From a virus (lineage: Duplodnaviria; Caudoviricetes): DNA of 64,000 nucleotides. The first letter of the stretch is position 1. Each line of letters starts with the position of its first letter. The stretch covers positions 1 through 64,000 of the IMG/VR virus record IMGVR_UViG_3300001580_000017, one strand, 5' to 3'. The notes beneath the pieces were generated by a model. That model was given only the letters and a program-made list of their open reading frames with translations. It did no database searches and was not told the DNA's origin. Shown here piece by piece: positions 9,750-63,683 of this stretch. A program made the translations under genes and the position numbers.

Positions 9750-11027
9750 CTACCACTTCATTATGTTATTATACTTATCGCTTTGTATTCCATCCGTGAT
9801 CAGTGTTAATTGCTGAGAATATGCCTTTGGTGTAAAGCTGTTTGTTATTCCTTTAATTAAATACTTCCCTGTATAAACTTCGTCAGGGGTGCTATATTCT
9901 TCATTCTCTTGGGTCACGGTCATTTGTGATGGTACCTCCATTGTTATGATTTGACCAAGCTTCCTATCTTCATATCCTTGAACAGTTGCAATACATTCAT
10001 ACATCATTGTGTTCATCTTCATTAATATAGTGTTCAAGTATCCCGTGTTAAATTGATTCTTATAATCACTCGTGGAATAAACCTGACTTATATTATTCTG
10101 ATAAACATTCAGCATATCCTCCGGAACATTTAAATAACCCGAAAGATGCTTATACATATTTTTCGTGTCATAAATATTTTTATTCGTTGTCACATACTGA
10201 TTTTTTTCCATGTCAAAATAAACCAAATTCGTTAGCGACATTCCATGTTGGATCATGTTGATATAATTCGGAACTCTAACAAAATGCAGTGTATAAATTT
10301 TATTCATATTTTTGTTCGTTGCCGTCAGACTATGATTTTCATTTATAATTGTCTGAGAACTATTATCAAAATATTTTGTGTTGGTATATTCACTTGTTCC
10401 ATTTTCAAATAAAGTCGGAAGTGTCACAAAATTTAATATTCCATTCATATCCTGATAGAACATGTAGCCCGATTTATTTTTATCTGAAACGGCATAATTT
10501 GAAATATCAGTAATAATTTTGATAGGTGACCATTGAGGAGAACAATAGGTTAATAAATTATTCAGAGAGGTGTCGAAGAATTTTGTTTTAACATCACATA
10601 AACGGCATAATTCCTGAGCAATATGTTGAAAACTTTTATTTGAAAACTGTTTGCTGATAGAAATATTGTAAGCATTTATTATATTCCCGGAAGTAAAATG
10701 AATTTCGAGATCACGGAACGGTCTTTTATTTAAATCAATTGGTGTCTGCAAGCTTTTAAATACATCAAAGGAATATGTTGTTACCGTATAATCAATATCT
10801 TCTTCTGTCTGTTTCTTTAGAGGAATAATCGGCTTATAAACCATGAGTTCAATTTTATCACCCTGTATCGGATTTAAAACCTGCCAACTGTCCCTGTCTG
10901 TTAATTTAATGTAACCTTGAAGTTGTGGATCAAATAAGTCCTGTGATATTCTGCACTCTGTATAATTAATTAGAGGAATATCAATTATGGTGTTATCTCT
11001 CTTTATGTATTTAATTCCTATTAGCAT
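9750..11027 (-). CDS. gp27: Baseplate hub protein, gp27-like
   Basis: SPQWSPIKII, YMFYQDMNGILNF, RKLGQII, YTGKYLIKGITNSF motifs. Confidence 0.7.
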   Translation of the reverse strand: MLIGIKYIKRDNTIIDIPLINYTECRISQDLFDPQLQGYIKLTDRDSWQVLNPIQGDKIELMVYKPIIPLKKQTEEDIDYTVTTYSFDVFKSLQTPIDLNKRPFRDLEIHFTSGNIINAYNISISKQFSNKSFQHIAQELCRLCDVKTKFFDTSLNNLLTYCSPQWSPIKIITDISNYAVSDKNKSGYMFYQDMNGILNFVTLPTLFENGTSEYTNTKYFDNSSQTIINENHSLTATNKNMNKIYTLHFVRVPNYINMIQHGMSLTNLVYFDMEKNQYVTTNKNIYDTKNMYKHLSGYLNVPEDMLNVYQNNISQVYSTSDYKNQFNTGYLNTILMKMNTMMYECIATVQGYEDRKLGQIITMEVPSQMTVTQENEEYSTPDEVYTGKYLIKGITNSFTPKAYSQQLTLITDGIQSDKYNNIMKW

Positions 11028-60146: not shown

Positions 60147-61712
60147 TTACAATAAATCCAAAAAAGTTGGTTTGGCTACCGAATCAATGAAAGATAAAAT
60201 ATGAGAAATAACTTTTATAGTCCATCCGTTTCCCATCAATTTGTATCTGTTAGTTTCTGCCACATTAGCTATAACATAATCAGTAAAATACATATCATAG
60301 AAACCATATAGAGCTTCATTATCTTCTCTTGGTATGATAAACTTCTTTGATGGTTTTTTATCAGTATAAACACCATATAAAGTATAATTATCAGGAACAG
60401 TTTGCAATCTTTCACATTCAAGGGGTGTTAATCTTCTAACTGATTTATTTTGAATAACAGATTGACCCGCTATAGATGTACGACAATGAGGAGTAGTTCC
60501 CAAAGTTTTTGCTTTCTCATCATCTTTTATTGTGTTATTATAATGATCAATTACATTTGCTTTGTTGTCATCATCTAATATTAAATGATTACATCTTGGT
60601 GACATAGCATGAAGTGTAGGATATTTATCTTCTTCTGTTATTTTTTCTTCTTTGTATCCATGAGGAATATGATATAAACCGGTCTTAGCACCCATTCCAC
60701 CAGCAGTTCCAATTAAAGTAACACTTTTTTCTTCTATATCATAAACACGACACCCCTGACTGTTTTTATGTGTCATTATCAGATTGTCTTTTGTTATCGT
60801 TGTCAAAGCATTTGTTTTTTCATCAAAGCGAGGTTCAAGCTGTTGTATATTTTTTCTTTGTTCTTGAATTTCTCCACTTTCATGGGCTTTTCTTATTTCT
60901 TTTCCATATAATGTTCTTTTCGGAGATAGACAAGCTTGTTCTCTTCCTCTGCTTGCTACACAGATGGCATCTTCTTCTCTATTGGTACAAATCAAATCAG
61001 CCGTTCCTCCACCACCAATTTTTAAGGTATCCATTTTATCAGTGTTATCAACATCTCGGAATTTTGCAGAAAATCCCCTGCTGTTTTCAACTTGTCTTTC
61101 GTTGTATTTGAATAATGCATTTAAAGTTTTATCACTCAAATAATATCTATCATCAGCATTCTGTTCAAGTATATCTTTTAATTTTATTCCCTGATCTTCC
61201 GGTTGCTGAATATTTGGGATATTTGTCCAGTAGAGTCGCTGCCTATTTTGTGCGCTTAAATTTGAACTGTTTATCAAAATGGGTTCTACTCCCATATAAT
61301 CGGTTATTTGCTGTTCCCATTCCTTTTTCATTTTGACATTTTCTAATAAAAAATATTTGGGTTTTAATTCTTTTAATAATCGGAGATATTCAAAGAATAA
61401 ACTACTATCTTTTCCTTCTAATCCTCCACCAAGAGAATTGGCATTTGAAAGCTGCGTGCAAGGCGATCCCCCCATCAGCAGGTCAATTACAGGAAGATTT
61501 TCAGCATTTAATTTTGTAACATCACCAAGTTGAACAGTTTCGGGAAAATTAAAATTTGTTACCGCTATTGCATGGGTATCAATTTCCGAAGCATAGTATT
61601 TACAATATTTTATTCCAAGATCATTTAGTGCAAGTTGACCCCCGGAACAACCATCAAATAAACTCAGAACATTTCTTACATAAATTTTATCAATTTTTTC
61701 TACTTCAATCAT
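60147..61712 (-). CDS. C5-cytosine DNA methyltransferase with long variable region
   Basis: SLFDG, GSPC, ENV, QNRQR, RRLTPLECERLQ, GNGW; ends TFLDLL. Confidence 0.93.
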   Translation of the reverse strand: MIEVEKIDKIYVRNVLSLFDGCSGGQLALNDLGIKYCKYYASEIDTHAIAVTNFNFPETVQLGDVTKLNAENLPVIDLLMGGSPCTQLSNANSLGGGLEGKDSSLFFEYLRLLKELKPKYFLLENVKMKKEWEQQITDYMGVEPILINSSNLSAQNRQRLYWTNIPNIQQPEDQGIKLKDILEQNADDRYYLSDKTLNALFKYNERQVENSRGFSAKFRDVDNTDKMDTLKIGGGGTADLICTNREEDAICVASRGREQACLSPKRTLYGKEIRKAHESGEIQEQRKNIQQLEPRFDEKTNALTTITKDNLIMTHKNSQGCRVYDIEEKSVTLIGTAGGMGAKTGLYHIPHGYKEEKITEEDKYPTLHAMSPRCNHLILDDDNKANVIDHYNNTIKDDEKAKTLGTTPHCRTSIAGQSVIQNKSVRRLTPLECERLQTVPDNYTLYGVYTDKKPSKKFIIPREDNEALYGFYDMYFTDYVIANVAETNRYKLMGNGWTIKVISHILSFIDSVAKPTFLDLL

Positions 61713-62008
61713 TTATCTGTGCTCCCAATTCCACCGGTTCTTTCTTCTACTGTTTCGTCACCATCAGCCACTAAATACTTCTCAAAAACTCCTTGAGCTA
61801 TTTTTTCTCCTTTGGTTATTAATCTTGGACATTTACCAAAATTATGTAATGCTACGGCGATGTTCCCGTTGTTATTTTCGTTGTTATGATAATCACAATT
61901 ATGCAGACATAAATTATTTCCAAAAAAATTGTGATTTTTATCAACATTAATGTGATAAATTGGTTCAGTTGTCGTTTGTTTAATTTCTTTGATTTTCACA
62001 AATTTCAT
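61709..62008 (-). CDS. dut: Split-intein C-fragment (37 aa) fused to dUTPase C-extein (62 aa)
   Basis: MKFVKIKEI...NHNFFGNNLCLHN|CDY...KIAQG...RTGGIGST. Confidence 0.9.
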   Translation of the reverse strand: MKFVKIKEIKQTTTEPIYHINVDKNHNFFGNNLCLHNCDYHNNENNNGNIAVALHNFGKCPRLITKGEKIAQGVFEKYLVADGDETVEERTGGIGSTDK

Positions 62009-63032
62009 TTATTTTCTCCTTTAATTTAATTATGTATTCTTCTTTTTCTTCAAAATCATTTTCCCATAAGACTAATACTATATATCCCATATTTTGTAAA
62101 AATAATTTTTTCTGATTATCGTATTCCCAAATATCTGATGCGGTCTTTTGTATTTTAGAATGAAAATAACTCGCATCATATATTACCGGATTACAATGCC
62201 AATAATCACCATTACATTCAATAATAATTTTTTTATCTAACAAACAAATATCAACAAATAATTTTCGAGTTTCATTTTTAACACACATCTCTACCTCAAC
62301 ATTGAATCCGTGCTCTTTTAATTTATCAAATATATATTTTTGCCATTTTGATATTCTTTTTGCACCAAATCTCTTATTGCTACACACAAGAGAACAATAT
62401 GTATGATTTTCACATTTTGTAGTTGTAAATTCATTATTACATGTTGGGCAAATTTTAATCAATCTTCCGATATCGTGTTTACATTTTTTAGAACAAAAAC
62501 TTACATTTTTTCTATATGGGTGAACTTCAAAAATATTTTTACACACTATACACACTTTTTTTATTAATCTCTTTTCTTGGTTTGATTGAAATTTTAAATC
62601 CTTGTGTTTTTGCCTGTATGCTGACCAACAAGCAATTGAGCAACATCTTTGATTTGCATTTTGTGAATATACAGTAAATAGATTACCGCAGTTAATACAA
62701 TTTCTTTTAACTGGAGGAACACGGTTGTTTTTGCCACTACAGATTTTGCTACAAAATTTTTTATTTTTAGTTTCTTTGCCACATTTATAACAGAATCGTG
62801 TTTTGCTGCGGTTATAACACGAGACGGAACAATATTTTTTAGATTTATCCCATTCTGTAACTTTGAACATGGTATCACAAAATAAACATTTTTTAATTTC
62901 ATTGTGTGGAGATTTGTGTTCCCAATAACACGCGGTTGAACAATAATTTGCTGTGTTTTTTCTGTATAACGGCACATAAAATTCATTTCCACATCCAATA
63001 CAAGATTTTGTTACTCCATTTTTCGCACTCAT
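61980..63032 (-). CDS. Free-standing homing endonuclease: Cys repeats plus Vsr/DUF559-like nuclease
   Basis: Repeated CxxC...[FY]CSxxC; VDI...IIECNGDYWH...GYIVLVLWE. Confidence 0.85.
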   Translation of the reverse strand: MSAKNGVTKSCIGCGNEFYVPLYRKNTANYCSTACYWEHKSPHNEIKKCLFCDTMFKVTEWDKSKKYCSVSCYNRSKTRFCYKCGKETKNKKFCSKICSGKNNRVPPVKRNCINCGNLFTVYSQNANQRCCSIACWSAYRQKHKDLKFQSNQEKRLIKKVCIVCKNIFEVHPYRKNVSFCSKKCKHDIGRLIKICPTCNNEFTTTKCENHTYCSLVCSNKRFGAKRISKWQKYIFDKLKEHGFNVEVEMCVKNETRKLFVDICLLDKKIIIECNGDYWHCNPVIYDASYFHSKIQKTASDIWEYDNQKKLFLQNMGYIVLVLWENDFEEKEEYIIKLKEKINEICENQRN

Positions 63033-63065
63033 ATATTTCCTTTATTTTTAATATTATAACAATAT

Positions 63066-63073
63066 TATTTATA
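63066..63073 (-). promoter_or_regulatory. Late promoter TATAAATA for the endonuclease and IntC
   Basis: Exact octamer between dut-N and the endonuclease. Confidence 0.75.
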
Positions 63074-63092
63074 AAAGAAATATAGCGGTAAA

Positions 63093-63683
63093 CTAAAATT
63101 TTAAAACTTTATCGCAAATTGTCAAATTTTTAATTTTTATCCATCCTCGTTCTGTATATATTTCTTTGTTCTCTGGTAATTTTATTTTGTCACCTTCTTC
63201 TGTTTCTATTTCTATTAGCGGCAAATCATTAACTATCCATATATCAGTTATCATATCTTCTTCTACTTCTTTTTCCTCCTCATTAAAAGAAAAAATTATC
63301 TCAGGGACATTACTATCAAAAATATCTTCTATTTTTTTATTTCCGTTGGGTGTGGTTATATTTGTTCCTTTCGGTACACAATCCACTATACCAGTGCCAT
63401 TGGCAAGTCTCAATTGTCTCTTGATTCCCAAAGAACTTCTCGAATAAATTTTAAGAACTTCATCATCTTGCATTTTACAACAAACATCTGTCCAAGTTAT
63501 AACTGTTTCACCCGGAGGAATTTCAATATCTTCCACAAGGAAAAAATCATATCCAGCGGAATTTTTACTTCCTCTTTTCGGTAGAATTATTTCCGCATTT
63601 GGAAATTTTCTAAATTTATCCGAAACCACATAAAATTTTCTATTAATTTGTTTGTATATTTCTTTTTCGCTCATATACGCCAT
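63093..63683 (-). CDS. dut: dUTPase N-extein (101 aa) fused to split-intein N-fragment (95 aa)
   Basis: AGYDF, SRSS, GIVD|CVPKGTNITTPNGNKKIEDI...TERGWIKIKNL. Confidence 0.9.
   Translation of the reverse strand: MAYMSEKEIYKQINRKFYVVSDKFRKFPNAEIILPKRGSKNSAGYDFFLVEDIEIPPGETVITWTDVCCKMQDDEVLKIYSRSSLGIKRQLRLANGTGIVDCVPKGTNITTPNGNKKIEDIFDSNVPEIIFSFNEEEKEVEEDMITDIWIVNDLPLIEIETEEGDKIKLPENKEIYTERGWIKIKNLTICDKVLKF

Follow-up and report, generated by a model that had tools for sequence, protein, structure and literature searches.

Organization of the locus

We analyzed a stretch of 64,000 nucleotides (nt) of viral DNA (Duplodnaviria; Caudoviricetes; IMG/VR record IMGVR_UViG_3300001580_000017, positions 1 to 64,000), here referred to as the window, in which the coding information for a dUTPase is divided between two genes that also encode the two parts of an intein. 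The open reading frame (ORF) list and a check of the coordinates placed three successive ORFs on the minus strand (Table 1). ORF1 encodes the N-terminal half of the dUTPase followed by the N-terminal part of the intein (IntN), ORF2 encodes a putative free-standing endonuclease, and ORF3 encodes the C-terminal part of the intein (IntC) followed by the C-terminal half of the dUTPase. ORF1 and ORF2 are separated by a spacer of 60 nt, and ORF3 overlaps ORF2 by 29 nt.

The dUTPase similarity in ORF1 spans residues 26–106, with a match to the Pfam dUTPase family PF00692 at residues 31–106 (35.6 bits, cut-off 22). Cys1 of IntN is Cys102 of ORF1 (codon 63380..63378) and directly follows the residues NGTGIVD. 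From this cysteine to its end, ORF1 matches the N-terminal intein profile TIGR01445 (31.7 bits, cut-off 24.5), and the N-terminal 37 residues of ORF3, which end in His-Asn, match the C-terminal intein region. The coordinates given in a preliminary description of this DNA, the Cys1 codon, the lengths of IntN (95 amino acids, aa) and IntC (37 aa, ending in His-Asn) and the separate Shine-Dalgarno sequence of ORF3 were all confirmed.

The two exteins fit together precisely. Positions 11–86 of the dUTPase profile NF010561 match ORF1 and positions 79–147 match ORF3; extein residue 101 falls on profile position 85 and Cys+1 on position 86, with no gap and no overlap. The residues Asp-Tyr of the C-extein provide the remainder of dUTPase motif III, and the five motifs of the trimeric dUTPases (PF00692) are found in order in one chain only after ORF1 and ORF3 have been joined. 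The half-proteins have predicted masses of 22.7 and 11.2 kDa, and joining them would give a product of 163 aa and 18.4 kDa with the junction NGTGIVD/CDYHNNEN (a slash marks the insertion point), which agrees with the normal-sized dUTPase expected in the preliminary description. With the alternative start at Met4 (63674), which is the choice of the public gene call, the joined product has 160 aa. In unsplit dUTPases the insertion site reads GIID(S/F/C)DY, and GIIDCDY occurs naturally in many unsplit viral dUTPases. Thus, Cys+1 is a normal variant of motif III.

Table 1. Features of the fractured dUTPase locus, with positions in the window
Feature	Positions	Strand	Remarks
ORF1 (dUTPase N-terminal half and IntN)	63683..63093	-	196 aa
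dUTPase N-extein (ORF1 residues 1-101)	63381..63683	-	motif I SAGYDF, motif II SRSS, first half of motif III GIVD
IntN (95 aa, Cys1 to Phe95, then stop at 63095..63093)	63093..63380	-	block A CVPKGT
Predicted RNA hairpin in the ORF1-ORF2 spacer	63032..63084	-	3' arm pairs with the endonuclease Shine-Dalgarno sequence (AAAGGAAAU) and the A of AUG
TATAAATA, T4-late-promoter-like motif	63066..63073	-	34 nt ahead of the endonuclease ATG, about 1.06 kb upstream of IntC
ORF2 (putative free-standing endonuclease)	63032..61980	-	intact, 350 aa
Zinc-ribbon array of ORF2 (residues 11-217)	62382..63002	-	six CxxC...CxxxC modules, presumed DNA-recognition part
Predicted catalytic domain of ORF2 (residues 229-350 and stop)	61980..62348	-	Vsr-like/EDxHD type
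Shine-Dalgarno sequence of ORF3	62016..62021	-	AAGGAG, inside the 3' end of ORF2, 7 nt ahead of the ATG
ORF3 (IntC and dUTPase C-terminal half)	62008..61709	-	99 aa
IntC (37 aa)	61898..62008	-	block F IYHINVDKNHNFF, block G LCLHN, Asn codon 61900..61898
dUTPase C-extein	61709..61897	-	Cys+1 (61897..61895), DY, motif IV KIAQGVF, motif V GGIGSTDK, stop

Distribution and conservation of the fractured gene

A word-based protein search identified seven metagenomic proteins in which a dUTPase N-terminal part is followed by IntN, with 49–58% identity. Gene layout was surveyed on the contigs of these seven proteins and at twelve further loci from the Joint Genome Institute, wherever the contig was long enough. 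The order N-terminal half, endonuclease and C-terminal half was complete in L005, L006/L001, L051, L052, L055, L057, L059, L061 and L063, and the contigs of L054, L056 and L065 terminate within the endonuclease gene. In total, this arrangement of three genes was seen in at least 10 diverged metagenomic loci. An exhaustive profile search with IntN only, covering 1.84 billion cluster representatives, gave 1405 matches at E <= 0.001. Among the best 150 of these matches (clusters at 50% identity), 54 are short proteins that have IntN behind dUTPase motif III. The junction reads G-x-[IV]-D/C in most of the 54 and IDN/C in three; in these three (P0040, P0063 and P0069) the intein lies one residue further on, at an adjacent site in motif III (IDN/C versus ID/C). 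The preliminary description was correct in the anatomy of the locus but had missed this wide metagenomic spread, as well as the absence of the block B histidine described below.

One protein of 284 aa, P0073, carries an unsplit mini-intein of 129 aa at the same D/C site. No longer, unsplit form turned up in the word-based search, and P0073 was found by the exhaustive profile search. Its IntN region is 40% identical to the window IntN. The IntN and IntC encoded by the split genes align to P0073 across the break point, with an eight-residue linker between the two aligned regions; the break point itself was located with the contiguous P0073 and with 7cfv. Residues 3–90 and 221–283 of P0073 match residues 5–86 and 88–148, respectively, of the S. 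mutans dUTPase (3h6x). A structural model of P0073 (mean predicted local distance difference test score, pLDDT, 82) contains a Hint domain within the dUTPase fold, with template modeling (TM) scores of 0.87–0.88 to gp41-1, 0.84 to Npu DnaB and 0.76 to dUTPase 3h6x.

No record with the fractured dUTPase arrangement was found among 50,697 deposited phage genomes. Searches of the deposited phages by blastn with the locus gave no match, and tblastn with ORF1 and IntN returned only unsplit dUTPases and remote inteins in terminase, portal and helicase genes. Erwinia phage pEa_SNUABM_1 was considered as a carrier of a split dUTPase ('hypothetical protein x2') and rejected, as it has a single gene of 178 aa.

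When five loci were compared, synonymous sites were saturated (proportion of synonymous differences, pS, 0.45–0.8). The proportion of non-synonymous differences (pN) was 0.14–0.28 in IntN, 0.07–0.25 in IntC, 0.24–0.42 in the exteins and 0.25–0.46 in the endonuclease, and the intein halves are under purifying selection at least equal to that on the exteins. Across dUTPase subfamilies, IntN sequences are 40–58% identical to the window IntN but the N-exteins only 21–35%, a difference that fits horizontal movement of the cassette from one diverged dUTPase allele to another.

Predicted catalytic residues of the intein

The nucleophile at position 1 of IntN is a cysteine, as it is in all 53 aligned IntN relatives hosted by dUTPases. 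In IntC, the pattern NHNFF...LCLHN/C, which includes His F:13, the penultimate His, the terminal Asn and Cys+1, is invariant in 10 loci and in P0073, and residues 25–37 are nearly invariant across the 10 loci. A class 3 intein, with a WCT triplet and no nucleophile at position 1, was rejected, since Cys1 is present, F:4 is His and block G reads LCLHN with Leu before the penultimate His. The net charge is -10 for IntN and +2 for IntC; an acidic IntN with a slightly basic IntC is the pattern of other natural split inteins.

At the place of the class 1 block B motif Thr-x-x-His (Thr B:7, His B:10), IntN reads P-E-N-K, as placed by three independent HMMER alignments to the solved DnaB/DnaX mini-inteins 4o1r, 1mi8 and 7cfv, and there is no histidine in any of its 95 residues. 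Block B reads PxxK in 41 of the 53 dUTPase-hosted relatives, TxxQ in five, A/SxxK in four, TxxE or TxxS in two and TxxH in one (P0108, which alone retains TPEH). The motif TxxH is kept in 72 of 83 related IntN sequences from non-dUTPase hosts, which comprise DnaE, helicases with a DE/C junction, ribonucleotide reductases with an NP/C junction, terminase, S-adenosylmethionine (SAM) synthetase and radical-SAM-like proteins with CxxxCxx/C. A second group of dUTPase-hosted sequences (P0106, P0115, P0131, P0145, P0149, P0096 and P0117) has Thr at B:7 but Gln (or Glu or Ser) at B:10, and because of this group the B:10 histidine seems to have been lost or replaced by more than one route in dUTPase hosts.

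The change from Thr-x-x-His to Pro-x-x-Lys means that activation of the N-terminal scissile bond must use something else. Lys B:10 may stabilize the intermediate of the first step. At the place of Asp F:4, 10 of 11 IntC sequences have His (His19 of IntC) and L061 has Tyr, which weakens the idea that His19 is a strictly conserved stand-in for His B:10. The idea that PxxK is an adaptation to Asp at position -1 is weakened as well, given that the three relatives with the IDN/C site also have Lys and that one D/C relative keeps TxxH.

His B:10 is described as the residue most strongly conserved among inteins, and in many of them it is indispensable (PMC4031507, PMC6333167). A review from 2014 listed two inteins that lack this histidine, namely a pseudogene and Tko CDC21-1 (PMC4031507). 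As far as the cited accounts describe them, the Tko CDC21-1 intein and its orthologues are natural inteins without the block B His (Tori et al. 2012; PMC4031507, PMC6333167). In these terms the window intein resembles Tko CDC21-1 in being of class 1 type with Cys1, in lacking His B:10 and in that a lysine is proposed to activate the N-terminal junction. However, the compensating Lys58 of Tko CDC21-1 is placed outside the conserved blocks, whereas the window intein has Lys at B:10 itself, with Thr B:7 changed to Pro and, unlike Tko CDC21-1 in the same accounts, His in place of Asp F:4. Moreover, Tko CDC21-1 is presented as archaeal, contiguous and located in a helicase, whereas the window intein is phage-borne, split and located in a dUTPase.

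The endonuclease gene and the spacer preceding it

The ORF2 product is a putative Vsr-like/EDxHD homing endonuclease. In sequence, its C-terminal third weakly matched Vsr, DUF559 and MTES_1575 (Vsr E 7e-4, E 1.1), a sequence search against the PDB gave nothing significant, and the placement comes from the fold search alone. For the AlphaFold model, made with an alignment of ten homologues (mean pLDDT 83), Foldseek returned Vsr (1vsr/1cw0, probability 1.00) and I-Bth0305I (3r3p, probability 1.00, TM 0.72, 22% identity). Residues D261, E272, G-D-Y-W-H279 and D305 are invariant in the 10 homologues, as are the cysteine quartets of the zinc-ribbon modules, of which the homologues carry four to six; each module is modeled as a beta-hairpin and a helix. 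The modules weakly resemble YacG and MYM/FCS-type fingers in sequence, and the combination of a modular zinc-finger array with a Vsr-like nuclease resembles a natural zinc-finger nuclease.

The hairpin predicted in the spacer ahead of ORF2 has a folding energy of -17 kcal/mol (z -3.2), which was matched by 1 of 200 shuffled sequences. In L051 (z -6.8), L056 (z -3.7), L052 and L059, the endonuclease gene is likewise preceded by a hairpin that has this design but another sequence. The motif TATAAATA overlaps the 3' end of the outer 5' arm of the hairpin and the 5' arm of the inner stem, so that a transcript begun just downstream would be without the outer 5' arm. The same motif is found in the equivalent spacer of L005 and L061. 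It occurs 25 times in the window, as compared to 13.9 copies expected (a number reached in 0 of 100 shuffles), and 20 of the 25 copies are on the minus strand; this enrichment and strand bias fit a candidate T4-like late promoter in a phage of 31% G+C. A scan for sigma-70 promoters gave nothing above chance, and TTGACA-16-TAAAAT at 63125..63098 was given no weight. The late promoter that had been placed upstream of IntC in the preliminary description exists as a motif, but it lies before the endonuclease gene and about 1.06 kb upstream of IntC. A ribosome site sequestered in a hairpin, which limits translation of the endonuclease to late transcripts, is the classic arrangement of T4 intron endonucleases.

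Comparison with known fractured genes and inteins

The layout is that of the fractured genes described by Dassa, London, Stoddard, Schueler-Furman and Pietrokovski in 2009, for which the hosts are gp41, IMPDH, DnaE, NrdA, NrdJ, ligase and terminase, and which include the characterized split inteins gp41-1, gp41-8, NrdJ-1 and IMPDH-1 (PMC2677866). The similarities comprise the sequence of N-extein with IntN, free-standing endonuclease and IntC with C-extein, the break between blocks B and F, where inteins canonically carry an endonuclease, a Vsr-like endonuclease, and the phage setting with a host enzyme of nucleotide or DNA metabolism. Hairpin and promoter-like elements ahead of the endonuclease ORF, which are predicted here, are also found in those genes (PMC2677866). 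In contrast to them, the host is a dUTPase with a D/C site in motif III, block B reads PxxK and not TxxH, and the endonuclease carries six zinc-ribbon modules and not NUMOD motifs. The structures of gp41-1 and NrdJ-1 are 19–22% identical to the unsplit relative P0073 in the structural alignment.

The nearest published case in the dUTPase superfamily, within the literature searched, is the dCTP deaminase intein of cyanophage vB_AphaS-CL131, which has been shown to self-excise (PMC6293099). This intein, too, comes from a phage, and its host enzyme belongs to the structural superfamily and the pathway of dUTPase. However, the CL131 intein is contiguous, has 351 aa with an HNH endonuclease inside and a canonical block B (T-P-D-H), and is located at STYAR/CGI in a motif II-like region, whereas the window intein is in motif III. 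The different site and the canonical block B led us to reject the CL131 intein as an allele of the window intein.

The closest likeness of the endonuclease is to the I-Bth0305I/EDxHD group of Vsr-like homing endonucleases (PMC3239194; PDB 3R3P), with which ORF2 shares the fold of the catalytic domain, conserved acidic and His residues and a DNA-binding part set apart at the N terminus. The gene for I-Bth0305I lies within a recA group I intron, whereas ORF2 is free-standing between the intein halves and has six CxxC...CxxxC modules.

No paper that pairs a split intein with a dUTPase was found in the literature searched. The proposal in the preliminary description that dUTPase may be a new insertion host holds for the hosts of Dassa et al. 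2009, for the literature searched and for the 50,697 deposited phage genomes. Thus, the layout is of the known fractured-gene kind, the dUTPase host is new within the literature searched, and the catalytic make-up is a variant.

Proposed trans-splicing and alternative explanations

We consider it highly probable that an uncultured AT-rich phage with T4-like late-promoter motifs carries a fractured dUTPase gene at this locus and that trans-splicing of class 1 type restores the enzyme. The combination of a fractured dUTPase, a naturally split intein and a free-standing endonuclease, as first proposed in the preliminary description, is in agreement with the evidence from sequence, family, fold and conservation, and trans-splicing of the two halves is very likely. 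According to the mechanism that we propose, the acidic IntN and the slightly basic IntC would associate into a Hint fold, and splicing by means of Cys1, the terminal Asn and Cys+1 would join GIVD to CDY, giving a normal dUTPase subunit of 163 aa with motif III restored. Lys B:10 would be the most plausible activator of the N-terminal scissile bond, possibly aided by the IntC His at F:4. The zinc-ribbon Vsr-like/EDxHD endonuclease most likely carries the complete cassette from one dUTPase allele to another, for which it would cut either close to motif III or within an allele with the unsplit intein. The hairpin, which would hide the ribosome site and has TATAAATA inside, probably restricts translation of the endonuclease to late transcripts. 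We infer the dUTPase activity, the activity and target of the endonuclease, the use of the promoter and the role of the lysine.

Some observations weigh against this interpretation. His B:10 is absent from IntN, although it is called the most conserved intein residue. The model with the Hint fold is that of the unsplit relative P0073 only, the splicing is deduced from sequence, and the promoter-like motifs are consensus matches in DNA of 31% G+C. Finally, the phage record is about 40% complete, and a second, intact dUTPase may be present elsewhere in the genome.

The lack of the block B His throughout the clade could also mean that the intein halves are splicing-dead and act as a non-covalent docking module, which would give a two-chain dUTPase with a Hint domain hanging from motif III. 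Such an enzyme would resemble the fragmented ribonucleotide reductases that are assembled via interaction domains without splicing, and split phage genes that are functional without splicing provide a precedent, to the extent that they are covered in the cited account (PMC3045599). However, Cys1, the terminal Asn, the penultimate His and Cys+1 would be needless for docking, yet they are invariant over dozens of diverged clusters, and approximately 130 residues would keep interrupting motif III beside the active-site aspartates. Moreover, the natural intein clade of Tko CDC21-1 splices without His B:10 (PMC4031507, as far as described there). We regard docking without splicing as unlikely.

Another possibility, raised in the preliminary description, is that enzyme assembly is gated in time, such that the C-terminal half is made only late from the TATAAATA promoter and active dUTPase appears late in infection. 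The location of TATAAATA upstream of ORF2 and ORF3 and the overlap of ORF3 with the end of ORF2 would be compatible with such timing. However, we found no terminator-like site between ORF1 and ORF3 on the coding strand, and read-through transcripts should thus carry ORF3. The Shine-Dalgarno sequence of ORF3 is its own and strong, and no RNA structure was predicted at the ORF3 start (z +0.97); the hairpin covers the start of the endonuclease gene and not that of ORF3. Also, dUTPase serves nucleotide metabolism and is normally needed during replication. Timed assembly of the dUTPase is not borne out by these observations and is quite improbable; the position of the hairpin, the unstructured Shine-Dalgarno sequence of ORF3 and the lack of a terminator-like site suggest that the hairpin/TATAAATA element most likely times the endonuclease and not dUTPase assembly.

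That the dUTPase gene was inactivated by invasion of a mobile element and is decaying, with both halves non-functional, is most improbable: another dUTPase could exist outside the incomplete phage record and, to our knowledge, dUTPase is not universally essential for phages, but all three ORFs have stayed intact in this locus and in at least nine others, among which synonymous divergence is saturated; the two exteins and the two intein halves alike show little non-synonymous change, and all five dUTPase motifs are retained.

If trans-splicing is accepted for the window locus, dUTPase joins, at its active-site motif III, the short list of enzymes fractured by split inteins. Split and unsplit forms of one intein are found at one site, and this represents the intermediate proposed in the gene-breaking model. 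A broader and more tentative reading, to which we give slightly less than an even chance, is that many uncultured phage dUTPases host a split-intein clade of their own, in which Lys B:10 replaces His, B:7 is Pro and the His at F:4 is usually supplied in trans. This large natural clade without His B:10 contrasts with the two such inteins in the 2014 review (PMC4031507) and, if the lysine does act in place of the histidine, would have its own, widely used way of catalyzing the first step of splicing. Since related inteins in other hosts keep the His, the clade provides a ready comparative set for studies of how the N-S acyl shift is activated without histidine. The compact halves of 95 and 37 aa are a candidate orthogonal trans-splicing pair with a D/C junction, which, if the interpretation is true, is likely to be orthogonal to gp41-1, NrdJ-1 and DnaE, and the candidate nuclease with its modular zinc-ribbon array may be of use as a tool.

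Additional observations

Relatives of the window IntN also terminate short N-terminal fragments of other enzymes (P0082, P0091, P0092, P0098, P0100, P0102 and others). Several of these fragments stop after CxxxCx[FY], and a Cys at position +1 would complete a CxxxCxxC motif of the radical-SAM type. A related IntN is also found in P0112, which is the N-terminal part of a SAM synthetase, and in P0119, which has a B12-binding domain. By their sequences, the fragments of the radical-SAM type, SAM synthetase and B12-binding proteins may be further hosts of fractured genes beyond those of Dassa et al. 2009.

Additional small ORFs were observed near the related loci. An ORF of 87 aa that belongs to no known family is located between the IntN and endonuclease genes in L001 (5544-5807) and L006 (4538-4801). 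On the related 135-kb contig L001, a small ORF with a Cas12f1-like/TnpB zinc-ribbon domain (9869-10093, minus strand) is located near the fractured dUTPase.

In the window, ORF3 is directly followed by a gene for a C5 cytosine methyltransferase of 521 aa (60147..61712, minus strand), the ATG of which overlaps the ORF3 stop codon. Its Pfam match spans residues 14–447 for a profile of 324 positions. A large insert is thus implied, perhaps in the form of target-recognition domains that are enlarged or present in several copies.

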